From the IMG/VR virus record IMGVR_UViG_3300032516_007629: a stretch of DNA of 64,000 bases. One strand, given 5' to 3'. Shown here piece by piece: positions 1,907 through 54,727 of this stretch. The translations under genes and the position numbers were made by a program. This stretch comes from an uncultured virus (IMG/VR IMGVR_UViG_3300032516_007629). Its lineage: Duplodnaviria; Heunggongvirae; Uroviricota; Caudoviricetes. Numbering within the stretch: the first letter of the stretch is position 1; every line of letters starts with the position of its first letter. Under the pieces are notes generated by a model, which was not told where the DNA came from, searched no databases, and was given only the letters and a program-made list of their open reading frames with translations.

Positions 1907-2063
1907 TGTGGAAGAGTAAAGCCTTTGATGTTATAGATGCCTGGTTTGATGCCTACCCGGTATTGAGCATAGTGATATTCTGTTTGTTACTTATCCTTAC
2001 CTCGCCACTTTTAATCGTGGCTACAGGATACTCCTATTTTCTAAAATATGTGCTTAGGAGCAA

Positions 2064-2342
2064 ATGATGAGTCTCTTGGCAAACATTCGAGATATCCTGT
2101 TTGATCGCCCCTACTCCGCAGCCGAACGCATAGCCTTTGGCGCACACGTAATTTTGTACCAAGATGTGTCTGCAAACATCAGCGCCGAAAGGACAAATTG
2201 CAACGGCACCTACGGCATGCGTCTTTGCATAAGAGATGGAAACGCTACAGTATCGATTGATCTGTCGCCAGATGCCGCATTTAATGTTGCCAACCAAATC
2301 AAAGATGTGGTCCAACGACTCGTACAGCAAAATAGAAGTTGA
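2064..2342 (+). CDS. Hypothetical protein
   Basis: ORF with AGGAG SD upstream. Confidence 0.6.
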   Translation: MMSLLANIRDILFDRPYSAAERIAFGAHVILYQDVSANISAERTNCNGTYGMRLCIRDGNATVSIDLSPDAAFNVANQIKDVVQRLVQQNRS

Positions 2343-2367
2343 CAAATCCAAAACGGATCGTTAGATT
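2339..2367 (+). promoter_or_regulatory. sigma70-type promoter of tRNA operon 1
   Basis: TTGACA-17 nt-TAGATT. Confidence 0.85.
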
Positions 2368-2418
2368 AAATACTAAGGGTACCCAGTGGGTGTCCTGAAT
2401 TTAATTTCAGAGGGTGTC

Positions 2419-2478
2419 TTGAAAAATAAATTTTACAGCATGTGGTATTTTTACTTCTCCTCGGAGCGAAGGGAATAA
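2419..2478 (+). CDS. Leader peptide 1, MKNKFYSMWYFYFSSERRE (attenuator of the Met/Phe/Tyr/Trp tRNA operon)
   Basis: TTG start after GAGGGTG SD. Eight of codons 5-13 are F/Y/M/W, matching the four downstream tRNAs. Confidence 0.85.
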   Translation: MKNKFYSMWYFYFSSERRE

Positions 2479-2497
2479 CACGGCTATTTGCCTAAAT

Positions 2498-2532
2498 AAA
2501 ACCCCGCTCCTACTTCAGGTGCGGGGTTTTTT
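2498..2532 (+). terminator. Intrinsic terminator (attenuator) before tRNA operon 1
   Basis: AAAACCCCGCTCCT-ACTTC-AGGTGCGGGG-TTTTTT. The 5' arm can alternatively pair with GGAGCGAAGGG (2463-2473). Confidence 0.9.
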
Positions 2533-2571
2533 GCGTTTAAGGAGGTGAAAGGACAAAGTGTTTTTATAGAC

Positions 2572-2648
2572 GGCGGTGTAGGCAAATTGGTTTGCCACCA
2601 TGCTCATAACGTGGATCAATGTGGGTTCGAGTCCCATCACCGCCACCA
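2572..2648 (+). tRNA. tRNA-Met(CAT), probably elongator
   Basis: Acceptor GGCGGTG/CACCGCC, anticodon arm CCATG-CTCATAA-CGTGG, GTTCGAGTC, encoded CCA. No initiator GGG/CCC stem. Confidence 0.9.
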
Positions 2649-2651
2649 CAT

Positions 2652-2728
2652 GCCAAGATAACTCAGCCAGCTAGAGTGTCCGAATGAAAATCGGAAGGTC
2701 GTGGGTTGAAATCCCACTCTTGGCACCA
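2652..2728 (+). tRNA. tRNA-Phe(GAA)
   Basis: GCCAAGA/TCTTGGC acceptor, TCCGA-ATGAAAA-TCGGA, CCA end. Confidence 0.92.
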
Positions 2729-2730
2729 AT

Positions 2731-2814
2731 GGGAGAGTCGCCTAATTGGACGGGCAACGGACTGTAAATCCGCCGATTAATTTCAAGTGAGTTCGATTCT
2801 CACCTCTCCCACCA
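2731..2814 (+). tRNA. tRNA-Tyr(GTA)
   Basis: GGGAGAG/CTCTCCC acceptor, CTGTAAA loop, extended variable region, CCA end. Confidence 0.92.
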
Positions 2815-2825
2815 TTTTTCCCAAT

Positions 2826-2899
2826 ACGGTAGTAGCTTAATGTAGAGCCTTGGACTCCAAATCTAAGAGGCGTCGGATCAACCCCGACCTACCGTGCCA
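2826..2899 (+). tRNA. tRNA-Trp(CCA)
   Basis: ACGGTAG/CTACCGT acceptor, TTGGA-CTCCAAA-TCTAA, G73-CCA. Confidence 0.88.
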
Positions 2900-2959
2900 C
2901 ATTGGACACCCGCCTCGCTAAATGTTAAAATCCAAAAAACCATTTAGCGCGAGGCATAT

Positions 2960-3322
2960 TTGAAAATCAAAGAACTAAAAGCAGTCCTAAATAGTATTGG
3001 TGATCGTTACGACGATTGGGATTTAGCTATCCCGCTGTCTAAGCCATCGATTGGGGCTATCGCTACCTGCAAAGTGCGAAGCATCAGTTTTGGTTTTGAC
3101 TGGGAACACGGCAAGGCTTTGATCAATCCGGAAGGTCGGCTAAACGAGAAAACAAAACCCGAAGATGTCTATCACGATGCCTCTGAATTTCTCCTGTGGC
3201 TTGCCACGAAGCCAATTAAACGAGAAACTTACGAAATGAGGGAAGCTAAAAGGATCCTGCTACGTGCAGGACACACCGAGGAAGATCTTTGTAAGTACCA
3301 AAGATATTTGCACGAGGTTTAA
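2960..3322 (+). CDS. Hypothetical phage protein
   Basis: ORF with GAGG SD and its own TGGACA-17-TAAAAT promoter. Confidence 0.65.
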   Translation: MKIKELKAVLNSIGDRYDDWDLAIPLSKPSIGAIATCKVRSISFGFDWEHGKALINPEGRLNEKTKPEDVYHDASEFLLWLATKPIKRETYEMREAKRILLRAGHTEEDLCKYQRYLHEV

Positions 3323-3330
3323 AGCAGGCT

Positions 3331-3558
3331 ATGTACAAACTAAATGTTGATCCAGACAAGCTTAAAAACCTTGCCAAAGACGAAGAGGGGTTTGATATCT
3401 CCGCTGGTATTCCAGTGATCCCACCACTACCAGATCGACCCTTTGACCCTAATGCTACCATAGCTATCTGCGGCGAGTGCGGACTTGAACTAAAAACTGT
3501 GATGTGTTATTCATGTTCAAACCCAAAGTGTCCTTGCTTTCCTCAAATTAGGTGTTAA
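3331..3558 (+). CDS. Small Cys-rich (zinc-ribbon-like) protein
   Basis: CGECG...CYSCSNPKCPC. Confidence 0.55.
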   Translation: MYKLNVDPDKLKNLAKDEEGFDISAGIPVIPPLPDRPFDPNATIAICGECGLELKTVMCYSCSNPKCPCFPQIRC

Positions 3559-3562
3559 AAAA

Positions 3563-3874
3563 ATGGGATGGATCTATTTACTTATAGCGATTCTACTAGA
3601 GTTTGCTGGTACTTTTAGCCTGAAGTATTCTGAAGGATTCACCCACCTCCCCCCCGTCTTCTATGCTTTATGCTTTTATCTTGGGTGCCTGCTTAGCTTC
3701 ACCCTTGCACTAAATCATCTAGAACTTTCCCGCATGTATGCCCTATGGACCGGCATCGGTACCATCCTGTCCGTGTTCGTTGGCTATTACTTCTTCAAAG
3801 AACCTCTAGGTGCGCTCAAGTGCTTTTCCATTTTCCTTATTGTTCTCGGCGTGTTAGGCACTATAACCTTTTAA
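3563..3874 (+). CDS. SMR/DMT-family small multidrug transporter
   Basis: 103 aa, four hydrophobic segments, WIYLLIAILLE (conserved TM1 Glu), KYSEGF, YALWTGIG. Confidence 0.9.
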   Translation: MGWIYLLIAILLEFAGTFSLKYSEGFTHLPPVFYALCFYLGCLLSFTLALNHLELSRMYALWTGIGTILSVFVGYYFFKEPLGALKCFSIFLIVLGVLGTITF

Positions 3875-3921
3875 GCCTCTGGTGCCAAAGATTAAGTAAA
3901 AATACTGGGGGTTCCAAAAGG

Positions 3922-4977
3922 ATGAAAAAGATCTTTATAACTGGTGCTACGGGTATGATTGGGGGTGAGATTGCGTTGAGGTTAGCTGCTACCTGTGAGG
4001 TGTCCTGTTTAACTCGCGGGGGTTCGCAGGAGGAGGCGCAGAAGCGGTTAGATCTTAGGTTAAAGAAGAGTCTTTTGTTTCGGGATCTGGGGATCAAAGC
4101 TGTTTTAGGAGATTTGCATCAAGAGGGTTTGGGTGTAGCGGGTGATTACGATATAGACGTGATAGTGCATGCGGCGGCTGAGACGGCTTTTAACGATGCT
4201 GATTCGTGCCGCCTCACTAACATTGAGGGTACGAAGAGGGTTATTGAGTTTGCTAAGCGTTGTAAAAATCCTCCATTATTATGTTACATAAGTACTGCAT
4301 GTAATGTAGGTGCGGTTACTAATACGTGTTTAAAGGAAGAGGATGGGTGTCGTTTAGACAATGAGCACCACAATGAATACACGAAGTCGAAGGCTATATC
4401 TGAGACCTTGATTCGCAATTCAGGGTTACCTTTCTTGATTATTCGTCCGCCTATTGTCTTAAGTGACAGTGTAAAGGATAGGGGATTTGCGCGTCAGATC
4501 TTTTGGTTTGCCCCTATCGTCTTTAAATTTAAAGCGGTACCAGTCTCCCCAACATCTAGGTTGGATATTATCCCAGTGAGTTACTTAGTGGAATATATCG
4601 ATAAGCTCTTAGCACTGCCTGAGAGGAAATATGACTGTTATAATATATCTGCGGGTGAAAAGGACTGCTTTACTTCTTTTGAATGGGTAGAAGCTATCCG
4701 CAAATTTAATAAGGCTTCTTATGCCCCTAAGCTGATACCTCCAGCAGAGTGGACTAAAGACGATTATAAAAAATATGTCAATACACCGGACCTGGCGAAA
4801 TCCTTTCGGAGCTTGCAGTATTATTTTCCCTTTATGACCATGGATGTCGTATTCAATAACGCTCGACTTCAAGAAGAGTTTGGCGTATTAAAAGTCCCTC
4901 CACTACATACCTATGTGGACACCATCCTAGCTCAAGTGTCGGAAGAGGAAGCTTTAGAGGAGAGCCAGGCACCGTGA
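3922..4977 (+). CDS. Extended SDR NAD(P)-binding oxidoreductase (fatty-acyl/thioester reductase-like)
   Basis: IFITGATGMIG Rossmann motif, HAAA, YISTA, YTKSK catalytic YxxxK, IIRPPIV. Confidence 0.85.
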   Translation: MKKIFITGATGMIGGEIALRLAATCEVSCLTRGGSQEEAQKRLDLRLKKSLLFRDLGIKAVLGDLHQEGLGVAGDYDIDVIVHAAAETAFNDADSCRLTNIEGTKRVIEFAKRCKNPPLLCYISTACNVGAVTNTCLKEEDGCRLDNEHHNEYTKSKAISETLIRNSGLPFLIIRPPIVLSDSVKDRGFARQIFWFAPIVFKFKAVPVSPTSRLDIIPVSYLVEYIDKLLALPERKYDCYNISAGEKDCFTSFEWVEAIRKFNKASYAPKLIPPAEWTKDDYKKYVNTPDLAKSFRSLQYYFPFMTMDVVFNNARLQEEFGVLKVPPLHTYVDTILAQVSEEEALEESQAP

Positions 4978-5062
4978 AACAGCATGACTTAATTTTCTCA
5001 ATTATTTTGTTCGCATTCATTACCGCAATCCTCGTTCTAGGATTTTTTCTAGACAGTAAAAT

Positions 5063-5091
5063 TTGACAGATCCATTTTCGTCTGCTAGATT
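5063..5091 (+). promoter_or_regulatory. sigma70-type promoter of tRNA operon 2
   Basis: TTGACA-17 nt-TAGATT. Confidence 0.85.
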
Positions 5092-5121
5092 AAATGGAGT
5101 AGGTAATTTTTGGAGATAAAA

Positions 5122-5190
5122 ATGTTCAACGTATCCATTAGTACAATTTGCACCTCGGTCTCAACGACCGGAGCGGGGCTTTTGCACTGA
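5122..5190 (+). CDS. Leader peptide 2, MFNVSISTICTSVSTTGAGLLH (attenuator of the Ile/Ser/Ser/Thr/Cys/Val tRNA operon)
   Basis: GGAG SD and ATG. Codons 4-16 are all V/S/I/T/C, matching the downstream tRNAs. Confidence 0.9.
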   Translation: MFNVSISTICTSVSTTGAGLLH

Positions 5191-5205
5191 TTTTGCGATG
5201 AACGC

Positions 5206-5255
5206 AAGCAAACCCCCCGCCTCCGAGAAAAAGGAAGCGGGGGGGTTTGCTTTTT
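5206..5255 (+). terminator. Intrinsic terminator (attenuator) before tRNA operon 2
   Basis: AAGCAAACCCCCCGCCTCC...GGAAGCGGGGGGGTTTGC-TTTTT. The 5' arm can alternatively pair with GGAGCGGGG (5170-5178). Confidence 0.9.
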
Positions 5256-5257
5256 AG

Positions 5258-5331
5258 GGGCGTGTAGTTCAATGATAGAGCACCTGCCTGATATGCAGAA
5301 GACGAAAGTTTGATTCTTTCCACGCCTACCA
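5258..5331 (+). tRNA. tRNA-Ile(GAT)
   Basis: GGGCGTG/CACGCCT acceptor, CTGC-CTGATAT-GCAG, ACCA end. Confidence 0.85.
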
Positions 5332-5341
5332 GAAGTTAAAA

Positions 5342-5557
5342 GTGCAAGCACGTAAGACATATAAACACATTAACTGCCTAGACACAGCGATAGAGGTTCA
5401 AAGGATATTGGGAGTATGTGAAGATGGAACATTGTCCGTATTAGTTTCTTGGTGGAATATACGCGCAAAGATTCCTAGGAAAATTGTTAGGTACCAGGCA
5501 GTTAACATAAGAAAGGAGGAGATAGATAACTGGAAAGAATGGCATAGGGCAGCCTAA
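5342..5557 (+). CDS. Hypothetical protein inside tRNA operon 2
   Basis: 71-aa ORF between tRNA-Ile and the HNH gene. Confidence 0.5.
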   Translation: MQARKTYKHINCLDTAIEVQRILGVCEDGTLSVLVSWWNIRAKIPRKIVRYQAVNIRKEEIDNWKEWHRAA

Positions 5558-5564
5558 AAACAAG

Positions 5565-5774
5565 GTGGCTCATTGGCGATTTCAAAAACAAAGGATAATG
5601 GCGCTTAGGGGCGGCAAATGTGAATTGTGTGGATTTAAAGAGTACCCGGAAATTCTTCATTCACACCATATAATCCCTCGATCTTCTGGAGGTAGTAATA
5701 ATGATGAGAATTTAAGATTAATTTGTCCAAATTGTCACGCTATTGAACACCACTTAATGCGTACTGCTAGTTAG
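5565..5774 (+). CDS. Small HNH endonuclease inside tRNA operon 2
   Basis: CELCG...HHIIPRSSGGSN...NLRLICPNCH. Confidence 0.85.
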   Translation: MAHWRFQKQRIMALRGGKCELCGFKEYPEILHSHHIIPRSSGGSNNDENLRLICPNCHAIEHHLMRTAS

Positions 5775-5787
5775 TGTTTTATTTTAC

Positions 5788-5875
5788 GGAGCAATGAGTG
5801 AGAGGCTTAAACTAGCGGTCTTGAAAACCGCCGTGGGTAAAACCACCATCCGTTCAAATCGGATTTGCTCCTCCA
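5788..5875 (+). tRNA. tRNA-Ser(TGA)
   Basis: GGAGCAA/TTGCTCC acceptor, GCGGT-CTTGAAA-ACCGC, long variable arm, CCA end. Confidence 0.92.
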
Positions 5876-5926
5876 TTTTTTCTTTGCAGTATACTACTAG
5901 GTAATATAAGTGACGTAGGTTAACAT

Positions 5927-6019
5927 GGATGCTTGGGTGAGTGGCTTAAACCATAACTTTGCTAAAGTTACGTACTCTATAAAGGGGTACCGTCCGTTCG
6001 ACTCGGACAGCATCCGCCA
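5927..6019 (+). tRNA. tRNA-Ser(GCT)
   Basis: GGATGCT/AGCATCC acceptor, TAACT-TTGCTAA-AGTTA, long variable arm, GCCA end. Confidence 0.92.
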
Positions 6020-6020
6020 T

Positions 6021-6099
6021 GCCACAATAGCTCAGTTGGTAGAGCAGTCGCCTTGTAAGCGAAAGGTCGGTTCGGGTTCGATCCCCCCTTGTGGCTCCA
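6021..6099 (+). tRNA. tRNA-Thr(TGT)
   Basis: GCCACAA/TTGTGGC acceptor, TCGC-CTTGTAA-GCGA. The T-stem carries an apparent 3-nt TTC bulge. Confidence 0.85.
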
Positions 6100-6110
6100 T
6101 TTTAGATTAA

Positions 6111-6191
6111 GAGGCAGTGTGCCGAGTGTTGAAGGCGGTCGCCTGCAAAGCGACAAAATCATCGTGGGTTAAAATCCCATCTGCCTCTCCA
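6111..6191 (+). tRNA. tRNA-Cys(GCA)
   Basis: GAGGCAG/CTGCCTC acceptor, GTCGC-CTGCAAA-GCGAC, U73-CCA. Confidence 0.9.
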
Positions 6192-6212
6192 ATAGATTTG
6201 ATAGAAAGTTAA

Positions 6213-6290
6213 GGGCGTATAGGTTAGTTGGTTAAACCGTCTCGTTTACACCGAGAAGATCCGTAGGTTCAAATCCTACTGCGCCTACCA
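6213..6290 (+). tRNA. tRNA-Val(TAC)
   Basis: GGGCGTA/TGCGCCT acceptor, TCTCG-TTTACAC-CGAGA, ACCA end. Confidence 0.92.
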
Positions 6291-8202: not shown

Positions 8203-8748
8203 ATGGCTAAGACATCGCTTGATACTTTGAAATATTTCAAAGGAAATTACGAGCAGCAAGACAATTTTATTAAAAATTGTCTTGCATGGGTTTTTGAGCA
8301 GTACGAGACCCCGCTTGAGAAGTACTACCGCTTAGAGCTTCTCCATGCGGCTTATCGTGAGGGTGTTCTTAAAGGCTGGCTTGCTTGCTCTTACCCTGAG
8401 TTTGAGAAATGCATACTAGGTAGTGTAGTCATAGGACGGCGCTCCTATGACTACCCAAGGTGGTCTTATGTGTACTATCGGGATTATCCTGAGTACCGGG
8501 ACGGTCCCAAGTATAGGAAGAATAAAGATCATGCCCCTAAAGAGGAAAATCCTAAGGCTGCGTGGCGGGAGTATAAGAGGTTTAAAAGGGATAAGGTTAA
8601 ACATAGGCACTGGGGATCGGGTCGCCGCAATGTAGCTAAGAAGATACAAAACCGCAAAAGGCGGGGGTTAGAGCATATGTACTTCGCTAAAGGCGATTGG
8701 GATGCCTACCTGCCCGAAGTCAAAGCGGATCCTTGGATGTGGGACTGA
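8203..8748 (+). CDS. Hypothetical basic protein
   Basis: GGAGG SD, followed by the inverted repeat at 8759-8787. Confidence 0.6.
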   Translation: MAKTSLDTLKYFKGNYEQQDNFIKNCLAWVFEQYETPLEKYYRLELLHAAYREGVLKGWLACSYPEFEKCILGSVVIGRRSYDYPRWSYVYYRDYPEYRDGPKYRKNKDHAPKEENPKAAWREYKRFKRDKVKHRHWGSGRRNVAKKIQNRKRRGLEHMYFAKGDWDAYLPEVKADPWMWD

Positions 8749-8758
8749 GAGATATCAA

Positions 8759-16253: not shown

Positions 16254-16323
16254 CCAGCCCTTGCAGACAAGAGTAATTATTGCTATTATTTTTTTGATAT
16301 CAATTGGAAGAAAAGGGGTGAGT

Positions 16324-16898
16324 ATGTACCATAATAATTTAGGGCAATGGTCGGGATACACATTAGGGTCATTAAGAAGTAAGAGACTGCCTCAGTTTTT
16401 TGACTTGAAACGGTTTTCGACATTTGTTGAAACTGGAACCAGCCTAGGCTATGGGGTATAGATTGGGCATTAGACGTTGGTTTTAGCTCTGCTCATTCAA
16501 TAGAAGCTGCTTTAGGATGTTATAACCACTGCGTCAGCAAATTTAAAAACGATCCTAGGGTAGGTGTATATCATGGGCTGTCGTCGGAATGTTTGGAGCA
16601 GATTTTAAAAACGCTTCAAGGACCTCTGTTTATTTATCTTGATGCTCATTGGAGTGGGGGTAATACGAGTGCTGAGGATCCAATCCCCCTTATAAAAGAA
16701 ACAGAAGTGCTGTTGAAATATAAGGACATCAAAGACTGCCTCATTGTTATCGATGACGAGCGGTTAATGGTTGATCCTATAGACCCTCCAGCTTCGTGGG
16801 GAGCGAAGCTTAAAACAGACCTTCTAGATACTTGGCACGGTGCGGGGTTTACGAGCACATATTTAGATGACTCCATTATTTTTGATGTGGCTCCATGA
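16324..16898 (+). pseudogene. Frameshifted class I SAM methyltransferase-like gene
   Basis: FVETGTSLGYG in frame 1 continues as DWALDVGF...YLDAHWSGG...IVIDDER in another frame. Break at about 16453-16461. Confidence 0.75.
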
Positions 16899-16997
16899 AC
16901 CCTTATAAGAATTTGCCAGCACGAAGTTATTGGTCAAAATTCCACCAATGCATTTAAATTGAATAGAAGATGGGGAGCCGGATCTAAAGCGACAACT

Positions 16998-17736
16998 CTA
17001 AGACTCTAGATAAGTGAATCCCTCAGTTTGTGAATCTAAAGGGAGCCATCCTTCATTACTATTATGACCGAACCAATACTTCGGTGCTACAACCACTTTG
17101 GCGTTGTCACTAAGCCAAGCCGCCCACCAGCTAAAAGTGGAATTTGCTATAATTAAATATCTTGCTTTGTTAACAACAGTAAAACAGCTAAATACATCCA
17201 AACTTAATACAGTATAAGCTGGAAACCACGCTTTAGCTAAAGGCACATCGTCTGTAACTACGACAAACTTAACATTAGGTAACAAACTAGTTTTCAAAGA
17301 ATTTTTTAGGTAAAAAGAGACCTTTTCCAACATAATCACCTCCCCTAAAATTTATGACGCAAGTGTTATCATCTACACCAGAGGCTTCCAATAATGGGAC
17401 ATTATCAGGAACATTAAACCATGTTTTTATTTTACCGCGTGAATTCAGTAGATACTGCTCTGTTTGGAAGAACCCGACAAGTCTAGTGCCATCGGCAATT
17501 TTAAATAACTCGGGACTATATTTTTGACGATTGATGTCTCCACCATTAGCATCTATTTCACTGAAATTGCGATAGATCTGCTCTGTTGGTTCCCCTAAAT
17601 CGCAATTAAAGTAAGGTTGCCCCAAAAAATCCCTTGGGATATGAAAAGCATATCCTAAATGCTCGGCAACACTCCTACAAACAGCGTATTGCCATAGATG
17701 ATTTCCAAATCTTCCCTGAAGTAATACACTCAGCAT
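16998..17736 (-). pseudogene. Frameshifted GT11 (alpha-1,2-fucosyltransferase-like) gene
   Basis: GRFGNHLWQYA and NFRGGDY lie in one frame, VVTDD and IIANSTFSWWAAWL in another. Break at about 17290. Confidence 0.8.
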
Positions 17737-30382: not shown

Positions 30383-30458
30383 GGACCCATAGCTCAATGG
30401 TTAGAGCAGCAAACTCATAATTTGTTGGTTCGGGGTTCGAGTCCCTGTGGGTCCACCA
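30383..30458 (+). tRNA. tRNA with CAT anticodon, probably tRNA-Ile2 (lysidine, reads AUA)
   Basis: GGACCCA/TGGGTCC acceptor, TAGCTCAATGGTTAGAGCA D-arm and CTCATAA loop resembling bacterial Ile2. Met identity is not excluded. Confidence 0.8.
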
Positions 30459-30467
30459 TTCTCCCTT

Positions 30468-31337
30468 CTACCACCTGATTTGCCCCTCTTTTAGCTTCTT
30501 AAACGTAATCCTTTCTACTTCCATCTTTTCTTCACCTTTATATTTTAACGTCTTCAAAACGCTCCTAGCATCGCGGCATAACGTGCGAAAACCATCTGGC
30601 TCCAAGGATGCCGAATGGTCTGTGCCCCGCCAAGTGCGATCTAGTGTGAAATGCCGTTCGATGTATGTAGCGCCTAGGGTAAGGGCGGCAATATCGGCGG
30701 CAATTCCTAGGTGGTGCCCGCTAAATCCTACAGCTTTTACCCTACCTTGGTACTTGGTAATCAGGTTAGGGATCTCAAGCAAGCATACATCTTCAAAGGC
30801 GACGGGGTACCCAGAAGTGCATGAATATATTACTAAATCTTGATGTCGTTTATTGACCTCAAAAAGTGAAACAATTTTTTCGATTTCATCCTCTTCAGTC
30901 ATTCCCAGAGACAAATGTATCTCACCTGTAAAACCCGTGATTAGTTCCATCAACAGAGGCTTGTTTAGGTTACACGCTGACGGCACTTTGATCATTTTTG
31001 GTTGTAATGTTATTATTTCCTTTGCTGACGTTACGTCCCACACCGAAGTGGAGTACTCTATGTGAGCCTCATCACACCAACGCTTTAGCTGTGCATGTTC
31101 TTCGATAGTGAACTCTAACCGTTCCCTGTGTTCGCCATAGCTTGCCCCATAGCTATTATACCCATTAGGGTGTGGAGCGTTGTACTCTTCCTCCGTAAGA
31201 AGCTCTCTAATGCAACGTTTTTGGAATTTTACAACGTCTGCTTTAACAATGTGGCTAGCCACTTCAATCATCTCTTTGGCTATTTTAAGCTCACCCTTGT
31301 GATTGCACCCGATCTCCGCTATTAGTTTAACGTTCAT
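30468..31337 (-). CDS. neuB: NeuB-family nonulosonic acid (Neu5Ac/KDN-type) synthase
   Basis: LIAEIGCNHKG, DVVKFQKR, IKVPSA, GFSGH, IERHFTLDR...DHSASLEP. Lacks the C-terminal AFP-like domain. Confidence 0.92.
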   Translation of the reverse strand: MNVKLIAEIGCNHKGELKIAKEMIEVASHIVKADVVKFQKRCIRELLTEEEYNAPHPNGYNSYGASYGEHRERLEFTIEEHAQLKRWCDEAHIEYSTSVWDVTSAKEIITLQPKMIKVPSACNLNKPLLMELITGFTGEIHLSLGMTEEDEIEKIVSLFEVNKRHQDLVIYSCTSGYPVAFEDVCLLEIPNLITKYQGRVKAVGFSGHHLGIAADIAALTLGATYIERHFTLDRTWRGTDHSASLEPDGFRTLCRDARSVLKTLKYKGEEKMEVERITFKKLKEGQIRW

Positions 31338-32026
31338 GTTGATTCTCCGTGATAATGTTTTTTCATAGCCGCCTCCGCCATGTACCAATCCTCCGGTTCA
31401 TCAATGTCAATAGCCGTATATTCTGGCATCTCGAAAATTTCAACCTTAGTTGATAACCTATTTTTAAATATTCTAATATTCTTCACGGAATTGACGTAAA
31501 ATGCTCCGTTTTCCATAAGCGTCCCTGCGAAGTCTTGGCGTCGTGGTCTATTTAGGTAGTCATAGTTTATGGGAGAACCAGCGTCACCCCAAAAAAATCT
31601 CTTTACTCTTGAGCAGGACAAGACAGAAGATTTTCCCCCGCTGTTCAAATATCGGAGAATTCCCCCCTCGTAGTCTTCCGTCCTGGTCAAAGGGCAAGTT
31701 GCTTGAGATAATAAAAAGATCGTCTCATCAGAGATGTGTTGTTTCTCTATAAACTCCAAGATAACACTTTCTGTCGTTGATGCATCCTCTGCATTTTTGG
31801 GATCTCGGTCGTAAATCTTAACTTTGCCAAAAGCAAAGTTGCTAACTACATCTTTGATATCCAGGTTATCCGTCGCTACATATATCTTATTGATGCTTTC
31901 GACTGCCGACAACGCCCGTAGGTTCCAATATACTAGTGGCTTCCCGCAGAAATCCTTTATGTTTTTCAATGGTATCGACTTGCTTCCACCACGCACAGGG
32001 ACGAAAGCAATTAAATTAGGAGCCAT
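31334..32026 (-). CDS. neuA: CMP-nonulosonate (acylneuraminate) cytidylyltransferase
   Basis: PVRGGSKSIPLKNI, QATCPL, RPRRQD, ENGAFY, DIDEPED. Confidence 0.92.
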   Translation of the reverse strand: MAPNLIAFVPVRGGSKSIPLKNIKDFCGKPLVYWNLRALSAVESINKIYVATDNLDIKDVVSNFAFGKVKIYDRDPKNAEDASTTESVILEFIEKQHISDETIFLLSQATCPLTRTEDYEGGILRYLNSGGKSSVLSCSRVKRFFWGDAGSPINYDYLNRPRRQDFAGTLMENGAFYVNSVKNIRIFKNRLSTKVEIFEMPEYTAIDIDEPEDWYMAEAAMKKHYHGEST

Positions 32027-32057
32027 GATGTCCTGCCACATAAGTGAGTTAAATAAT

Positions 32058-33164
32058 TTAGGGTAAACATTTAAATAGACGTAAATAGGTTTGGGGATCT
32101 TTATGTTGTTCTTCAGTTAGAGTAAATTCTTTTATAAGCGTAAGAAATTTATCTACATCCTCACTCCAGTGTTCTCTTGAGAAAAACTCTGCTGTTTCCT
32201 CCAGTGAAGTTGGCGGTTTGGTATAAACTATATCCGCAGCAGAGTAGTAGGTTTTACCCAAGACTATAACTTTTTTACCTAAACAAAGTGCCTCAAATCC
32301 AGCGGTGCAGCTTACGGTAATAACGTAATCCGCAGCATTCATTAAATCAAAGCCGTTCACATCTCGGCCTAAGGTAAGGGTACCTTCTAGTATCTCTTCA
32401 TCGTCTGGTGCTTTGGGGTGTCTTTTATAAATAACCTCATATTTGCTACTATCAATAACTCGTGTACACCATTGTTGGAAGCACTTCGTCTCTTCAAATG
32501 TTGAGCCGAAACCGGGAATGTCCTGTCTGACCAGATGGGTCAGAACTTGAAGAGGAACGAAAACTAATCTCTTTGTCTTGTCTAAACCATAGCGTTCAAA
32601 AATCTCATCTTTGCTATATATAATATTGCCCTGTGCGGCATCCTTAAGAGATGCTAACCACGGCAGATCTAACTGAAGTGTGTCTTTGCGCTGTTGGTAT
32701 ATGCGGGGAAGGTTGCTGGTTGTATGGAAACCCCCAAAGTTGAAAAGATACCAACTTGGTTTCCTATACATCCACATGGAGGTGAAATCTTTGTGAGTCC
32801 TGTCAAGCCTACAACTCAGGACATCTTGGCATATTACCGGAATTCCTCTAGAGCTGAAAAAGTCGTTTAAATAAACATCCTCATTCCAAAACACGACTCC
32901 CGTAAAATTATATTTATCACATAAAGGGTTCAATGTATTATCTGACAAATAGAACCAAGGGGAGTCTATGGTTTCAACTACAACGTTAGAATACGAGGAG
33001 ATATTCATGCTCGTTACCAACTCCGGAGTAGTTAAGATTACTATTTTTTGGCAGTAGTCTTTTAAACGACCTACTATGTCAACAAATAGTGAAAGTGGCC
33101 AGTCCCAAGGTGTCATAAATAGTAGGGTCTCGGCTTCGGTTAAATTTTTATAGTGCGTGTTCAT
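32058..33164 (-). CDS. Capsule-biosynthesis (KpsC/S-like) GT-B protein, candidate nonulosonate transferase
   Basis: VFVPLQ, YKRHP, VITVSCTAGFEALCLGKKVIVLG. Confidence 0.75.
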   Translation of the reverse strand: MNTHYKNLTEAETLLFMTPWDWPLSLFVDIVGRLKDYCQKIVILTTPELVTSMNISSYSNVVVETIDSPWFYLSDNTLNPLCDKYNFTGVVFWNEDVYLNDFFSSRGIPVICQDVLSCRLDRTHKDFTSMWMYRKPSWYLFNFGGFHTTSNLPRIYQQRKDTLQLDLPWLASLKDAAQGNIIYSKDEIFERYGLDKTKRLVFVPLQVLTHLVRQDIPGFGSTFEETKCFQQWCTRVIDSSKYEVIYKRHPKAPDDEEILEGTLTLGRDVNGFDLMNAADYVITVSCTAGFEALCLGKKVIVLGKTYYSAADIVYTKPPTSLEETAEFFSREHWSEDVDKFLTLIKEFTLTEEQHKDPQTYLRLFKCLP

Positions 33165-33166
33165 AC

Positions 33167-34978
33167 CTAAGCTTTTAGACCCCAAAATTCCAGCCAAGCC
33201 TTTTCTCCCAAAACTATTGGAGGTTGACCTTGAACACAACTCGGTGTGCCATCGTCTATGCGTGTTATTACGGTACCATCTGTGTCGATTAACTTCGTCT
33301 TACACTTATGAGCCGCCATAACAAAGGATCGCTCTATTACATGTGCTAACGTACCACATCTCTGACCACCCTCATCTTCAAAATTATAATTAGATAGGAC
33401 ATCTAATAAGATGTGGAGTATATCGACTCTCCCATAAAACATTGACCCAGCAATAAAAACATCTGTTCCATTTGAACCTATACGATTAGCAAATTCGGTG
33501 ACCCTAGGTTTAGTTTGAGGCAAAGTATAGTGCAGTGGTAATAGATGTCCCTTAGGACCCACAAGACCAATCGTAAAATCTTCTTTCAACTTTGTTACTA
33601 TGGATGGGTTAAGGAGCGTAGTAAGTAAATCAGTTCGCCATTGCTTATTTAACTTTGTATGTAGCTTTAAAAAATGTGAGTATTTACCTAGTATTCTAGT
33701 TTTCACCGTCGTAATAAAAGGTAATATATCCTTACCCCTGTTATCATAGCTGTCTATGGTAGCTGTAGTTGAAAACTCTCCCACAACGGCAGCAACATCA
33801 TAATGTTTATCTTTGGTGGTGGTGATAAATAAATCAATTTCTTTAGAAGAATAACATTTTAACACCTCAGCTAGGATTTCTCTCAAAATATCTGGGTAAT
33901 ACGCATGAATGACTACGGCTAATTTAGTAGTCTCGTAACTTACTTCTGTTTTGCTGCTTCCGGTTTGGTTTGCCTCTATTAAGGCTTCTTTTGTCGCTCG
34001 TAAATAGGCATCGCCAAACTTTATATCCGGCTCTAAATGTGCGCCCTCTCCCCACTCATTCCACGCATTTATAAATACTGTATTATGATGGCTTTTTTTA
34101 AATGAAGCCAACAACCTCTCTCGATACATCTCAGGTGTTGATCCATAAAAAATGTGTGCAGCTTTTCCCCGTCTCGGTGTGTTGTCCCACGATGGGCAAA
34201 CACATTTGAAGACCTTAAACGGTTTGTCTCCGCAGACTAGTCCCTTATAGTTATAAATTTTACCACTGAAATTTTGGACTGGGGTAGGCGCTGGGTCAAC
34301 GAAGAGGTCGTTGCTTTGCACACCATGAGGGGGAAATTCAAGAGCGCAATCAAACGAAGTGTGATCCTGTGACCCTCGTGTAAGAGTATTTACCACATAT
34401 AACTCCCCTATTCCATTCTCTCTACACCACTCCCGCCAACGCATAACTGTAGCTGCGATATCTTGAAAAAGGTCTAGGCGATATACGCTAATAAGAGGTT
34501 TACCCTCAATGCGAATATACCGTGGGTCTAACAGATAAGGTTTCAATGACGCTATAAAGGCAATGTCGTCTTCAGCGTTATGCCTCTGCTGCACCAATAT
34601 CTCATTTTCCGACCCATCCCACCGCCTACTCCACGTTTCATTAGCCCACATTAAACAAAATGGCATGTCTAGAGAACTATCTCTTAAGAACATCTCTAAT
34701 GGCTTGTCAAGTAGTTTGCGCCCATTAAACCAATAGTAGTAGAAACAAAACCCTCCAATACCATACTGCTTTGCTAAGTCAATTTGATGACGAAAAGTCT
34801 GAGGATTCATCAAATCGTAGTAGCCATCGCGTGGAATGTGTGGCTGGTAATGCCCCTCAAAAATAGGAGTGGCTTTTTTAACATTCGTCCACTCGGTGAA
34901 ACCCTCGCCCCACCACTCATTATTTTCAGGTACTTCATGGAATTGAGTGAGATAATAACAAATCACCTGAGCCATCAT
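33167..34978 (-). CDS. WbsX/GH99-like domain fused to an RgpF (rhamnan synthesis F)-like domain
   Basis: YYLTQFHEVPENNEWWGEGFTEWTNV, FINAWNEWGEGAHLEPD. C-terminal VIHAYY, NRGKDILPF, KLHTK, AHVIER. Confidence 0.88.
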   Translation of the reverse strand: MMAQVICYYLTQFHEVPENNEWWGEGFTEWTNVKKATPIFEGHYQPHIPRDGYYDLMNPQTFRHQIDLAKQYGIGGFCFYYYWFNGRKLLDKPLEMFLRDSSLDMPFCLMWANETWSRRWDGSENEILVQQRHNAEDDIAFIASLKPYLLDPRYIRIEGKPLISVYRLDLFQDIAATVMRWREWCRENGIGELYVVNTLTRGSQDHTSFDCALEFPPHGVQSNDLFVDPAPTPVQNFSGKIYNYKGLVCGDKPFKVFKCVCPSWDNTPRRGKAAHIFYGSTPEMYRERLLASFKKSHHNTVFINAWNEWGEGAHLEPDIKFGDAYLRATKEALIEANQTGSSKTEVSYETTKLAVVIHAYYPDILREILAEVLKCYSSKEIDLFITTTKDKHYDVAAVVGEFSTTATIDSYDNRGKDILPFITTVKTRILGKYSHFLKLHTKLNKQWRTDLLTTLLNPSIVTKLKEDFTIGLVGPKGHLLPLHYTLPQTKPRVTEFANRIGSNGTDVFIAGSMFYGRVDILHILLDVLSNYNFEDEGGQRCGTLAHVIERSFVMAAHKCKTKLIDTDGTVITRIDDGTPSCVQGQPPIVLGEKAWLEFWGLKA

Positions 34979-35048: not shown

Positions 35049-35140
35049 TGGCTGGGATGGTGGGATTTGAACCCACGAAGAAGCTTCCGCCTCTTGCCAG
35101 AGTCAAAGTCTGGTGCCTTAAGCCGCTCGACCACATCCCG
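35049..35140 (-). tRNA. tRNA-Gln(TTG) with atypical long variable arm
   Basis: CCAGA-CTTTGAC-TCTGG, 7-bp variable stem AAGAGGC-GGAA-GCTTCTT, C1xA72, G73-CCA. Confidence 0.85.
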
Positions 35141-35228
35141 ATAAAAAATCAAGGTGTAGCCTCACTGTCGCAATGTCCTATTGTTGAAGAAACCTCGAAT
35201 ATTTTAACATACAAATCCTTTTAAATAT

Positions 35229-35304
35229 TGGAGCGGATGATGGGACTCGAACCCACTTTCTTCAGCTTGGAAGGCTGACGCTAGACCAGTTTAGCTTCAT
35301 CCGC
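35229..35304 (-). tRNA. tRNA-Gly(TCC)
   Basis: GCGGATG/CATCCGC acceptor, TCAGC-CTTCCAA-GCTGA, U73-CCA. Confidence 0.92.
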
Positions 35305-35311
35305 AACCTTG

Positions 35312-35385
35312 TGGAGCCGATAGGGAGAATTGAACTCCCTCCCGCACACTGGCAGTGTGCCATGCTACCGTAACACTTTATCGGC
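35312..35385 (-). tRNA. tRNA-Gly(GCC)
   Basis: GCCGATA/TATCGGC acceptor, GCACA-CTGCCAG-TGTGC, U73-CCA. Confidence 0.92.
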
Positions 35386-35387
35386 AT

Positions 35388-35464
35388 TGGTGGAAGTAGT
35401 GGGACTCGAACCCACGAAAAACTTGGTTGCAAACCAAGTGCAATTGCCGCTATGCGATACCCCC
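35388..35464 (-). tRNA. tRNA-Ala(TGC)
   Basis: GGGGGTA/TACTTCC acceptor with G3:U70, CTTGG-TTTGCAA-CCAAG. Confidence 0.92.
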
Positions 35465-35499
35465 ATTACGAACCTTTAGACTTTTCTCCTTTCCTTTAG

Positions 35500-35577
35500 T
35501 GGGGTGAATGACGGTACTCGAAACCGCATTATGCCGCCTTCACAGGGCGGTGATCTTCCTCTTGATCTACATCCACC
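35500..35577 (-). tRNA. tRNA-His(GTG)
   Basis: G-1:C73, CCGCC-CTGTGAA-GGCGG, CCA end. Confidence 0.92.
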
Positions 35578-35592
35578 ATGTGGCTGTTAAGA

Positions 35593-35668
35593 TGGCTCCC
35601 CAGGTCCGACTCGAACGGACATTTTCTTGATTAACAGTCAAGTGCATTGCCAAATCTGCCACCGGGGA
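35593..35668 (-). tRNA. tRNA-Asn(GTT)
   Basis: TCCCCGG/CTGGGGA acceptor, CTTGA-CTGTTAA-TCAAG, G73-CCA. Confidence 0.92.
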
Positions 35669-35750: not shown

Positions 35751-35822
35751 TCAGCTTAAACCAATACCCCTAGAGCCATTACCGGCTCCATGATTTGCTT
35801 GGTTATTTTGCTGAACGAACAT
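35751..35822 (-). CDS. Leader peptide 3, MFVQQNNQANHGAGNGSRGIGLS (attenuator of the Asn/His/Ala/Gly/Gly/Gln tRNA operon)
   Basis: GGAG SD and ATG. Codons 4-16 are all Q/N/A/H/G, matching the downstream tRNAs. Confidence 0.9.
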   Translation of the reverse strand: MFVQQNNQANHGAGNGSRGIGLS

Positions 35823-35867
35823 TTTCTAACTCCAAAATACTCTATGAGGGATTTTCCCTACTCTTTT

Positions 35868-35896
35868 AATCTTAGCACCACTTTCGCCGGAGTCAA
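35868..35896 (-). promoter_or_regulatory. sigma70-type promoter of tRNA operon 3
   Basis: TTGACT-16/17 nt-TAAGAT(T) with TG extended -10. Confidence 0.75.
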
Positions 35897-36553: not shown

Positions 36554-37129
36554 TCAATCTGGCGGGGGTACTTTATTTTTAGATGCCGGTGTTAGTCTAT
36601 ACCCTCTTTGTCTTAGATCTTTTTCTACAAGAAAGCGTAGATATCTACTGACACCTATGGGTTTACCTTTTGGGCTTCGCATATCCCGCACCACTCTATT
36701 TACTAGGTCTCTAATATGTGGGGGTACTGCGGGTGGGGTGAGGTGGACAAGTTCTTCGGTATCGAACATAGAGAAGTCGGGGGAAGAAGATGCTTGTTTA
36801 TTTTCTGGATTTTCTTTATCCACGCCAAGCATAGCGGTCATGGCTAGATATAAGCAGTTCTCCCTAGCTTTTTGGTTATCGGGATAGAGTTTCTTTAGAA
36901 GATCGGGGACAAGGAGGCGCTTTTTATCGTTCCTAATGGAGGCTTCTATTTGGTGAAGCGCATGATGACAATGGGCATCAAGGATAGCAATATTTGCACG
37001 AGTATCTTGCCCTCCTTGTGCTTTTTTTATTTTGTGATGCTCGTGCATGGAAATTCTAGGGAATACTTTTCCACAGCAGTCGCAAGCAAAGGTGTCGAGA
37101 CCACTGGCATCTTTTAGAAAAACAGGCAT
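36554..37129 (-). CDS. HNH-like domain protein
   Basis: CDCCG...HEHHKIKKAQGGQD...NIAILDAHCH. Confidence 0.7.
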   Translation of the reverse strand: MPVFLKDASGLDTFACDCCGKVFPRISMHEHHKIKKAQGGQDTRANIAILDAHCHHALHQIEASIRNDKKRLLVPDLLKKLYPDNQKARENCLYLAMTAMLGVDKENPENKQASSSPDFSMFDTEELVHLTPPAVPPHIRDLVNRVVRDMRSPKGKPIGVSRYLRFLVEKDLRQRGYRLTPASKNKVPPPD

Positions 37130-47222: not shown

Positions 47223-50200
47223 CTAAACCCCCATCTCATCAAACTCTTTTAGATCAATCCCAAAGATGCCCTTAGCCACTTCTTTAAACTCGTCCCACCT
47301 TGCTATCTTAATCCCTGGATATCCCCCTTCAAGCTTCTTAAGGAAGGTAACTAATGCGCTACGTCTAATGGGCAGATACCAAAACGGCTCGCCTTGTTGA
47401 AATCCTTTCTTCTTAAGGATCTGTCCTTCTTTAGAGCCTATTTTTACATTATCACTCATAACATACGGGTATCCATCAATACTGGCAAAGAAGAATTCTA
47501 CTTGATACTTAATCGACACCTTGCCTGAAACCGCCTTACGCCCCTCCTGCTCAAGTCTCTTAAGAGTACCCATCCTACTAGGGTGTAATAAACGTGCCTT
47601 AGCGACACCTTCTTGCAGACTGTCCTTATTCAAGATTTCAATCCCACCCTCTTCAATATCTTCTATAAGTCCAGAGACGCCACCTTTAGATGAAACCTCT
47701 TTATAATAGAAGGCGGGTTGAAGCATGAAACCTAGGCGTCTTACAAAGCCGTTAGGGTCGGCGGATTTGAATACCGTTAAAAACCAGTTATCATCCCAAT
47801 TTTGCAAATTAAAGGAAAGTTTAGGAGCATCCGTCTCCCACTTCATTGTCTCTAGTTCTTCCTCTATGATGTAGGTAGAATCGTTCCTATTACCTTCAAA
47901 GGTCTCCGTAGACGGAACAATGGCTAACTTTGTACCTACACTAAGTTCTTCATACCCATGAGGCGGTAAGATATGCGTTCCGTAGAACTCTTTATCCACC
48001 TTTGTTTGCTTTACACTAAACTCTTCTATCTTCTTTTGCCTTGACATAAAAGGTTCTATCTTATCGATAGACCTGAAAGTAGACATCCCTTCTAACGTCA
48101 TCTCGACATGAGGAAGCATTGTAGAATCGTCAAAGTCACTATTTGCTTTCGCTATAGTATGCTCCTGAGATAGAAGTCTCGCATTCTTTAAAAGCTCATG
48201 GGAGTTGTGTATCACTACATGATGTATGAACACTTCACGTTTTTGCTTTAAGCGATTAGCCCGTGCTTCACGCTGCCGCATATCGCCGTTAAGCCATAAA
48301 GTATCCGCATGGATTATGCAGTTAGCTACCTGGAGGTTGTGTCCCATACGCAAAGTAGAATCCACACCTATAAGTATTTTCAAATTGGAATCGGGATTTT
48401 TAAAGCGGTTTAATACCTCAATCATCCCACCCTCATAGTATTCCGCTTTCGGCTTCAAATTAGGATCTAGATGTTTTAAGAGGTTCTTACCAGCTTCCTT
48501 GTATTGAACAAATATAATAATTTTTCCATTAGATGGATTTCCTAGATGCTTGGAGCATATTGCATTGATCTCCTCTACCTTAGGAGACATCGCATCGTCT
48601 CCGGTCAAAGAAGCGCCTAAATACTTCTCTGCTTCACCTGGGGAATTTAAAAATACATCTAGAGGCGTAAACTTCGCTCTTAAAGCCGGATGCATGACAG
48701 CATCCTCTTCTTCTAAATCAAGATTGAATTTTTGAAAATACTTACTAAGAGTAGGATCTTTTTTGATATCCTCTATTGTATTGTTAAGGTATGCTTCATA
48801 AAATTTTTGCTGCGTCGTATTGAAAGATATGTAGTGATACTCACGATGCACCTTAGGCATCACCGCTCCCCAAGCAGTACTCCTAACCTGAGGGGTTCCA
48901 AACCTCTGGAGGTCGTTTCTGATGTCCTTAGGAGCCGTCTTGTGATAACTGTTGATCGACTTTGTTGCAGAATGCTTCTCTACAAAGTCTTTAGCAGACC
49001 CTAAAACCGAAGACTGAATGATACCCATAGGTCCTAAGACATCTATGAGATTTCCGGGCATGATCGTACCTGTATACCCCTTGACCTGAGATACTTTGGA
49101 AAACACACTAGACGCTTTAGTAAAATTACTATCGTTCTTTAGCGTGTGGCTTTCATCCATAAACACGGCATCCACACCCAGTTCATTTAATAGACGGTAT
49201 GCATTCGGAAATGTTTTTGTCTGACGATAGACTTGTCTACCCTTCTCCTCAACAATCTGTCCGTTATCTACTAGCTTCTTAATAGCCGATAGAAAGTGGT
49301 AAGAAGTAATAAATAGGGTATTAACAGGTGCCTCTTTAGCGGACAACAGCATCTTGGAAAACTTATCGTCTTTATATCCTTTACCCCATGTCTTAAGCGT
49401 CTCGCTAGTAATAATCCAGGGATTTAAAGAAGAGAAATTTCTCACTTCTAAAGCAAACTGACTAACCAAGTTGTTAGGCATAATAACTAAAGGACGCTTA
49501 ACCCTATCCTTAGCTATCTGATGTAATACATCAGCAATAATCAAAATGGTCTTTCCACTATTATGTGTTACTGTAAAATCTCCTAGTAGGAATAAACTAT
49601 CCTTATCTAATGTGAAACCATAGAATTCATCTTCCGGAAGTTCTTCTAGTGAAAAACCAGTTACACATACATCTTTTATCTGCACCCTTGGTGGTGCAAC
49701 CTTTCTTGCAATTTTGCAAGGTATAATATTTGTGTGCCCGCTGATTGTTATTCTATGGTGTGGACGCAACTGTGTAACGCCATTATAGGTATATTTAATC
49801 ATTCTCTTTTTCATATAAGCGGCTAAGCCTAAAGATCTAGCGATGAATAGTACCGATTCCGCCATGTCTTTATTCTTTACAGAAATTTCGTAGTACCCAT
49901 GGTGGAAATGTCCATCCGTGTCTATAAGACCGGCTAAAAACTGACAACGCACAGAAAAAGAATTATATATATACTCATCTGGAATTATCTTAGTACCTGT
50001 AAGAGACCATTCTTTGGTTTTTATTCGGATAAAATTGTTGTGCTTTTTATTTGTTACTGCGCACATGCGATATAATTTGGCTTTAGATGGCTTAGACCCT
50101 GATTTAGAGATATTTAAACGCATACCAACGGCTTGTGCATAGTCTGTTAGATATTCTTCTATCTCAGGATCCATATTGGTTATTTCTGCCTTGTTAAGAC

Positions 50201-54660: not shown

Positions 54661-54727
54661 ATTTCCGGTTTGACTACTCCGCTGCGTCATGCAATCCTAC
54701 CGACACACACAATTAAGGGTTGGTAGC

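Follow-up and report, generated by a model that had tools for sequence, protein, structure and literature searches.

The sequence analyzed here is a stretch of 64,000 nucleotides (the window) from an uncultured large tailed phage, which was assembled from sediment metagenomes. Among its predicted products are a ribonucleotide reductase, helicases and a sheath-like protein, and its closest relatives in culture are phages of Klebsiella and Escherichia that carry a myovirus tag in their names, with approximately 30% protein identity over one conserved protein of 724 aa. An RNA ligase gene is located at 54689-55720. ARAGORN predicts 17 tRNA genes in the window, 15 of which are confirmed by Rfam at the gathering score, and 16 of the 17 belong to three clusters; the window has no tRNA gene for Leu, Pro, Arg, Lys, Asp or Glu. 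Cluster 1, on the plus strand, consists of tRNA-Met(CAT) at 2572-2648, tRNA-Phe(GAA) at 2652-2728, tRNA-Tyr(GTA) at 2731-2814 and tRNA-Trp(CCA) at 2826-2899, and all four are confirmed by Rfam with 49.8 to 64 bits, in agreement with an earlier note on this DNA that had recognized the Met-Phe-Tyr-Trp set from the letters. Cluster 2 (5258-6290, plus strand) begins with tRNA-Ile(GAT) at 5258-5331 and continues, after two inserted ORFs (5342-5557, and an HNH endonuclease at 5565-5774), with Ser(TGA), Ser(GCT), Thr(TGT), Cys(GCA) and Val(TAC) tRNA genes at 5788-6290, as located by ARAGORN. Cluster 3 (35049-35668, minus strand) was identified with ARAGORN and Rfam and comprises Asn(GTT), His(GTG), Ala(TGC), Gly(GCC), Gly(TCC) and Gln(TTG). 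A leader/terminator unit of the kind described below was looked for at the lone tRNA(CAT) gene at 30383 and is absent there.

Ahead of each cluster the same parts occur in the same order, namely a sigma-70-like promoter, a Shine-Dalgarno site, an ORF of 19-23 codons, and a G+C hairpin with a U-run, and these assemblies are referred to as units 1, 2 and 3 after the cluster that each precedes. The promoter of unit 1 (2339-2370, plus strand) was found by the promoter scan with 10 of 12 matches and consists of TTGACA (2339-2344), a spacer of 17 nt and TAGATT (2362-2367), followed by AAA; that of unit 2 (5063-5094, plus strand; promoter scan and motif) has TTGACA, 17 nt and TAGATT (5063-5091), followed by AAA; and that of unit 3 (35865-35896, minus strand; motif search and scan) has TTGACT, 16 nt and TAAGAT, followed by TAAA. 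The motif TTGAC-N16-19-AGATTAAA has exactly three matches in the 64 kb, one upstream of each unit, where 0.03 would be expected, and none of 100 shuffled sequences contained three. Where the leader transcript of unit 1 is predicted to begin there is a 5' stem-loop of nine pairs (2376-2396, plus strand) with a putative role, to which a hairpin in unit 3 (35859-35847) is comparable. The distance from the T-run to the first tRNA gene is 39 nt in unit 1, 2 nt in unit 2 (to tRNA-Ile) and 30 nt in unit 3. The promoter scan lists no promoter between the terminator and the first tRNA gene in any of the three units, nor any plus-strand promoter between tRNA-Ile and tRNA-Ser of cluster 2 (5331-5788), and so the clusters should be transcribed from the upstream promoter, by polymerase that gets past the hairpin.

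The leader ORFs have 19, 22 and 23 codons in units 1, 2 and 3, respectively, and start with TTG or ATG at 4-7 nt from an upstream GAGGG or GGAG. In unit 1, the Shine-Dalgarno-like GAGGG (2410-2414, plus strand), read directly from the letters, is 4 nt upstream of the TTG codon (2419-2421) of an ORF that specifies MKNKFYSMWYFYFSSERRE and ends with TAA (2476-2478). An in-frame GTG at 2386, which would give an ORF of 30 aa, was rejected as the start; it lies within the 5' hairpin and is without a Shine-Dalgarno sequence. Codons 5-13 of the unit 1 ORF (2431-2457, plus strand) specify FYSMWYFYF, so that three Phe, three Tyr, one Met and one Trp codons, which the earlier note had correctly counted and placed in a TTG-started ORF at 2419-2478, fall within nine codons ahead of the Met-Phe-Tyr-Trp cluster. 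Here such codons are called test codons; those of unit 1 double as region 1 of the pairing scheme described below. The ORF of unit 2 (5122-5190, plus strand; MFNVSISTICTSVSTTGAGLLH) has GGAG 6 nt upstream of its ATG, and its test codons (5131-5169), which specify VSISTICTSVSTT, precede the Ile-Ser-Ser-Thr-Cys-Val cluster. The ORF of unit 3 (35751-35822, minus strand; MFVQQNNQANHGAGNGSRGIGLS) has GGAG 7 nt upstream of its ATG, and its test codons (35813-35775), which specify QQNNQANHGAGNG, precede the Asn-His-Ala-Gly-Gly-Gln cluster.

The match between each leader and its cluster was evaluated by scoring all stop-free windows of 9 or 13 codons in the six frames of the 64 kb for each of the three amino-acid sets. 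For Met/Phe/Tyr/Trp, FYSMWYFYF (8 of 9) ranks first among 77,251 windows, and the next best score (7 of 9) is shared by 10 windows; for Ile/Ser/Thr/Cys/Val and for Asn/His/Ala/Gly/Gln, the test runs of units 2 and 3 (13 of 13 each) rank first among 63,469 windows. Thus, the top window for each set of amino acids is, in all three cases, the leader that precedes the cognate cluster. By a table of codons and anticodons, every one of the 16 clustered tRNAs can read at least one codon of the leader that precedes its cluster, and isoacceptors are sampled separately: TCA/TCG for Ser(TGA) and AGT for Ser(GCT), GGA for Gly(TCC) and GGC/GGT for Gly(GCC). All eight cognate codons of unit 1 are readable by tRNAs of its cluster with Watson-Crick or G:U pairing, and among the cognate codons, 5 of 34 across the three test runs (5 of 36 in the whole leaders) require that U34 read C. 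A hand count of codons other than the start codon found 8 of 18, 13 of 21 and 15 of 22 cognate to the unit's own set in units 1, 2 and 3, respectively, and 1 to 5 cognate to the other sets.

The control clusters were tRNA clusters from other DNA, including 144 IMG/VR loci that were chosen solely for two adjacent tRNA T-loops, together with the tRNA region of phage T5. In a best-window test of 160 distinct clusters, drawn mostly from T5 and from viral or metagenomic loci other than the window, unit 3 is first (6.8e-9) and unit 1 second (3.0e-7), and the best control (4.9e-6) is a run of poly-Glu, which represents just one of the three amino acids of its cluster. Because the gap setting of this test divided unit 2, the value for that unit, approximately 2.4e-8, comes from separate arithmetic on the full set (13 of 13, with a background of 0.259). 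That the ORFs are functional micro-peptides, or chance frames, with a composition unrelated to the tRNAs is an explanation that could draw on the commonness of short ORFs and on a binomial test of the whole ORF, in which units 1 and 2 (about 5e-4) do not stand apart from the top-scoring control (6.4e-4, with 191 entries). It is nevertheless highly improbable, because the test based on runs separates the leaders clearly, because the leaders cover every amino acid of their own cluster, including the rare Trp, Met, Cys and His, and because the match is diagonal, each leader suiting its own set but neither of the other two. The 144 IMG/VR loci, with 191 cluster entries, contain no convincing further case, in a screen that has little power where clusters span many amino acids; inspection by eye of eight better-scoring control entries found a unit of promoter, ORF and terminator in none of them. 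In phage T5, none of 15 clusters has a cognate leader, and the best p value (1.2e-3) belongs to a Cys-rich ORF of 42 aa.

The hairpin between the leader ORF and the first tRNA gene has the form of an intrinsic terminator in each unit. That of unit 1 (2498-2532, plus strand) consists of an A-tract, a 5' arm CCCCGCTCCT (2502-2511; region 3), a loop ACTTC (2512-2516), a 3' arm AGGTGCGGGG (2517-2526; region 4) and the T-run TTTTTT (2527-2532), and it was missed by a simple terminator scan because of one U-U mismatch in the stem. Unit 2 has a hairpin of 43 nt (5208-5250, plus strand), with the core of its 5' arm at 5213-5224 and a T-run at 5251-5255. Unit 3, on the minus strand, has region 3 at 35732-35720 and a terminator at 35727-35701 with a T-run to 35699; this hairpin, with the letters AAAACCCCGC, CGATGAA and GCGGGGTTTT plus further T's, is listed by the terminator scan. 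The calculated energies of the terminators are -20.3, -31.0 and -15.7 kcal/mol in units 1, 2 and 3, respectively, and five or six U follow each. The 5' arm of each terminator can pair instead with a G-rich strand (region 2) from the last codons of the ORF to form a candidate antiterminator, with calculated energies of -18.2, -28.3 and -20.4 kcal/mol, so that antiterminators and terminators are predicted to be of about the same stability. In unit 1, region 2 is GGAGCG-AA-GGG (2463-2473, plus strand), which is complementary to CCCCGCTCC (2502-2510); the minimum-energy fold of the nascent RNA pairs GGAGCG (2463-2468) with CGCUCC (2505-2510) and GGG (2471-2473) with CCC (2502-2504), and the duplex has -15.8 kcal/mol. 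Nascent folds locate region 2 at 5169-5178 (plus strand) in unit 2 and at 35770-35758 (minus strand) in unit 3. When the upstream sequence was shuffled with dinucleotides preserved, the duplex of regions 2 and 3 was equaled in 53, 5 and 2 per 1000 shuffles for units 1, 2 and 3, respectively; that of unit 1 beats the shuffles marginally and is the weakest of the three, which counts against the attenuator reading given below, as do the TTG start of this unit and the five cognate codons that require U34 to read C. The earlier note had proposed this terminator for unit 1 and the pairing of GGAGCG-AA-GGG with its 5' arm, and would have abandoned the proposal if the antiterminator were not energetically competitive; the hairpin and the pairing are both present, and with -18.2 against -20.3 kcal/mol the antiterminator does compete. 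The folds thereby support its reading of the aromatic- and Met-rich leader as a putative attenuator of tRNA cluster 1, and the strongest backing for this reading comes from the two further units, which differ in sequence and each fit their own set of tRNAs.

Folding of the growing transcript gives the same series in all three units: regions 1 and 2 pair (1:2), this pairing is replaced by 2:3 once region 3 emerges, and 2:3 is replaced by 1:2 plus 3:4 once region 4 emerges. The series predicted by these folds is the classical topology of an attenuator. The 1:2 pairing of unit 1 is between 2442-2459 and 2464-2481, and region 1 lies within the test codons in every unit, at 2442-2459 in unit 1, at 5150-5160 in unit 2, and at 35804-35799 with 35821-35811 in unit 3. 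In nascent RNA without a ribosome, 2:3 is favored over 1:2 by 8.5, 11.8 and 6.3 kcal/mol in units 1, 2 and 3, respectively, and consequently transcripts that are not translated may read through. Equilibrium folds of the full-length leaders, in which the automatic detection of stems was wrong for unit 1, keep the terminator at nearly all positions of the ribosome, with a probability of at least 0.947 at every position in unit 2. Since the terminator prevails at equilibrium, antitermination would have to depend on the order of folding, which is a kinetic argument. The dominance of the terminator at nearly every ribosome position can also be taken to indicate constitutive leaky terminators, which would either fix a low output of tRNA or mark the end of a small leader RNA, with ORFs that are not sensors; the 24 sediment metagenome sequencing runs listed with this stretch, all 24 of them DNA, are likewise compatible with that explanation. 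It is improbable all the same, for it leaves unexplained both why the closest match to each set of tRNAs anywhere in the 64 kb is the ORF ahead of that set and why region 2 fits the 5' arm of the terminator better than shuffled sequence does in all three units.

The effect of a ribosome on the choice between these pairings was modeled with a footprint of 28 nt, from -15 to +12 relative to the A-site, and the readout was how probable the antiterminator helix is in nascent RNA. Applied to the trpL leader of Escherichia coli, the same method gives 0.70 at W11/R12 and 0.17 for a ribosome at the stop codon as well as for ribosome-free RNA, which is the textbook pattern. In unit 1, the probability is 0.95 with the ribosome at codons 1-11 (0.84 at K4), 0.71 at Y12, at most 0.15 from F13 onward, and 0.00 at the stop codon. 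Codons 1-11 take in F5, Y6, M8, W9, Y10 and F11, and the proposal of the earlier note that a ribosome stalled at Met, Trp, Phe or Tyr codons leaves the antiterminator free, and one at the stop codon does not, is borne out by the model for these positions; it fails for Y12 and F13, which are too near the antiterminator strand. The probability is at least 0.82 through codon 14 of unit 2 and 0.96 through codon 14 of unit 3, and 0.00 from codon 15 in both; up to codons 11, 14 and 14 of units 1, 2 and 3, respectively, the values span 0.82-1.00. The last two test codons of every unit are outside the effective zone. When the codon table and the footprint folds are combined, each of the 16 tRNAs has at least one readable test codon within that zone. 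The coupling might conceivably be of the opposite or a different kind, such that a stalled ribosome uncouples the polymerase and Rho or an RNase ends the transcript, or such that the leader acts on the stability or processing of the RNA, and the tRNA transcripts, being untranslated, could be open to Rho. This explanation seems quite unlikely, as the geometry is the classical one in which a stall at the test codons keeps the antiterminator and completion of the ORF destroys it, as canonical terminators with a hairpin and U-run are present, and as a scarcity that lowered the output of tRNA would be positive feedback without evident use.

Each of the three units thus has, at the level of sequence, what a ribosome-mediated attenuator comprises: a promoter and an ORF with a Shine-Dalgarno site, regulatory codons, a terminator, an antiterminator that excludes the terminator, a 1:2 pairing in which the regulatory codons take part, and the corresponding geometry. 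The three together are a highly non-random regulatory design. The favored interpretation, which we consider fairly likely to be correct, is ribosome-mediated attenuation of the tRNA genes by way of the test codons of the leader. According to this model, RNA polymerase would start at a promoter of the host type and transcribe each tRNA cluster only by reading through the intrinsic terminator ahead of the first tRNA, and the level of read-through would be set by a ribosome that translates the short leader ORF, of which codons 4 or 5 through 13 or 16 would probe each of the tRNAs in the cluster that follows. If the matching aminoacyl-tRNAs were plentiful, the ribosome would reach the end of the ORF and cover region 2, the 3:4 terminator would form, and transcription would stop before the tRNA genes. 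If any of the sampled aminoacyl-tRNAs were scarce, the ribosome would stall on the test codons and mask region 1, leaving region 2 free to form the 2:3 antiterminator, and the polymerase would enter the tRNA genes. The net outcome would be negative feedback on each set of tRNAs, driven by demand, with each set probably made mainly when ribosomes decode the matching codons slowly. That the leader ORFs are translated, that the hairpins terminate transcription, and in which direction and how strongly read-through responds, is what we infer from the arrangement of parts and the folds. Such a circuit is blind to the difference between loss of a tRNA and starvation for its amino acid, and additional tRNA is of no help in starvation.

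The model has its closest parallel in the multivalent leader-peptide attenuators of enterobacteria, of which the thr leader responds to Thr and Ile, and the ilvGMEDA and ilvBN leaders to Leu, Val and Ile. The units share with these amino-acid operon attenuators a promoter, a Shine-Dalgarno site, a short ORF rich in several amino acids, the 1:2, 2:3 and 3:4 pairings, and an intrinsic terminator ahead of the genes under control, but they precede tRNA genes rather than genes of biosynthetic enzymes, they are borne by a phage, and they occur three times, each fitted to its own cluster. The operon leaders have long runs of one or two amino acids, whereas the phage leaders sample four or five amino acids and four to six tRNA species, mostly with one to four codons each. 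As in E. coli trpL, the footprint analysis indicates that the 5' arm of the terminator is sequestered only with a ribosome on the regulatory codons; in contrast, untranslated trpL RNA keeps 1:2 and never forms 2:3, which the phage units favor by 6-12 kcal/mol. No Rfam leader family matches the window at the gathering score. A hit to the Rfam trpB motif at 2442-2538 was rejected as being at the level of chance (28.6 bits against a gathering score of 59, E 0.34).

Attenuation of pheST through the pheM leader, and T-box riboswitches, couple genes of the translation apparatus to the charging of tRNA, and T-boxes bind uncharged tRNA directly, with no need of a ribosome. In these systems, as in the model for the phage units, a product of the decoding machinery is regulated and the supply of charged tRNA is the signal, but they govern aminoacyl-tRNA synthetases and the phage units would govern tRNAs. 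There is no T-box match in Rfam at the gathering score in the window, nor at E values up to 1 within 2300-5300. The E. coli pheU and pheV genes were considered as a precedent with a Phe-rich leader and rejected; their promoters abut the tRNA and there is no leader. The tRNA region of phage T5 resembles the present window in having many tRNA genes among small ORFs, promoters and HNH endonuclease genes, and differs in that none of its 15 clusters has an upstream ORF enriched in cognate codons. Full-text searches turned up no description of tRNA genes under leader-peptide attenuation, within the reach of such searches, and a precedent could exist in older printed work; passages from PMC3082878 have no bearing on tRNA genes.

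If each set of tRNAs is made on demand, as it appears to be, the sensor is the ribosome itself, decoding the codons that those tRNAs read. The purpose of phage tRNA genes and the timing of their expression are still debated. One tentative idea, which we think somewhat doubtful, is that the leaders are codon "test strips" by which the phage detects the loss of particular host tRNAs and induces only the tRNA operon that supplies the needed replacements; the loss could be due to anticodon nucleases of host defense, to host shut-off, or to a mismatch in codon usage. If that were true, phage tRNA genes would be an inducible countermeasure under control sensed by the ribosome, and not a constitutive cargo, and the RNA ligase gene would fit a phage that faces damaged tRNAs. 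Confirmation of the attenuation model would give a textbook mechanism a new class of target genes, would allow a direct test of phage tRNAs as an answer to tRNA depletion, and would provide compact, programmable sensors for the supply of individual tRNAs. Because the promoters are sigma-70-like and the parts of each unit occupy less than 200 nt, the units can be tested as short constructs without culture of the phage.

Relatives in which conservation or covariation of the pairings could be followed were sought in the phage collection, in viral_contigs and by a metagenome scan, and none was found beyond one contig that is 99.5% identical to the window. A blastn search with 2050-3000 gave no match in the phage collection; no relatives of the neighboring proteins (2064-2342, 2960-3322 and 3745-4977) were found in viral_contigs; and the large subunit of the ribonucleotide reductase has matches of only about 50-60% identity, many of them from contigs labeled GVMAG. 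The WbsX-like protein encoded at 33167-34978 matched 12 loci, none with a tRNA cluster at the corresponding position. In the metagenome scan, unit 2 is 100% identical in the 99.5% identical contig (L092), the second match (L093) is a fragment, and nothing further is close. Among reads from four metagenome runs, the only variants of unit 1 are G2377A, A2498T and an A inserted into the loop after 2516, and all three are outside the leader ORF and the stems.

Two tRNAs with the anticodon CAT are encoded in the window, one at 2572-2648 (+), where it is the first tRNA of cluster 1 (Met-Phe-Tyr-Trp), and the other at 30383-30458 (+), where it has no leader unit (promoter, Shine-Dalgarno sequence, short ORF rich in the amino acids of the tRNAs behind it, and terminator). 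The acceptor stem of the tRNA at 30383 opens with a G-C pair, and for this reason it does not have the appearance of an initiator tRNA. Either this tRNA or the one in cluster 1 may be a tRNA-Ile of the lysidine type, reading ATA, a codon that accounts for 28% of the isoleucine codons in long ORFs. No tRNAs for Leu, Pro, Arg, Lys, Asp or Glu were found within the 64-kb window; if the phage carries such tRNAs outside it, the attenuator model, in which each tRNA cluster is preceded by a leader rich in the amino acids of that cluster, predicts a further leader rich in these six. Transfer RNAs cleaved by host anticodon nucleases can be repaired by phage RNA ligases, and an RNA ligase gene at 54689-55720 (+; Pfam RNA_ligase PF09414, E = 2.6e-23; PHA02142 OB-fold domain) would be consistent with a phage that tracks its tRNA supply.

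Immediately 3' of tRNA-Trp, the last tRNA of cluster 1, the stretch 2903-2958 (+) holds a second promoter-like site (TGGACA-17-TAAAAT, with a TG), overlapped by an inverted repeat (approximately 2910-2923 with 2941-2955) that lies just 5' of the ORF at 2960-3322. This site may be where the first tRNA operon ends and the next transcription unit begins.

All three tRNA clusters of the window have an HNH endonuclease gene nearby (597-1235, +; 5565-5774, +; 36557-37129, -). The second of these genes, together with an ORF of 71 amino acids (5342-5557), interrupts cluster 2 between tRNA-Ile and tRNA-Ser, and in one metagenome contig positions 5539-5610 are replaced by 13 other nucleotides. The tRNA region of phage T5 is similar in that HNH genes are interleaved with tRNAs. 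Immediately downstream of cluster 3 is a block of sugar-modification genes (30471-34978, -) that encodes a NeuB-like synthase, a cytidylyltransferase, a capsule-synthesis-like protein and a WbsX/RgpF glycosyltransferase.

Comparison of the window with L092, a metagenome contig 99.5% identical to it, found approximately 4.2 kb (L092 4880-9128) in place of approximately 135 bases at window positions 8613-8749, and more rearrangements around 16260-17127. These differences indicate strain-level variation of gene content within the phage population. Elsewhere in the window, residues 351-636 of an SNF2-type helicase of 1472 amino acids (47226-51641, -) carry Hint and LAGLIDADG homing-endonuclease domains, which belong to an intein-like insert.
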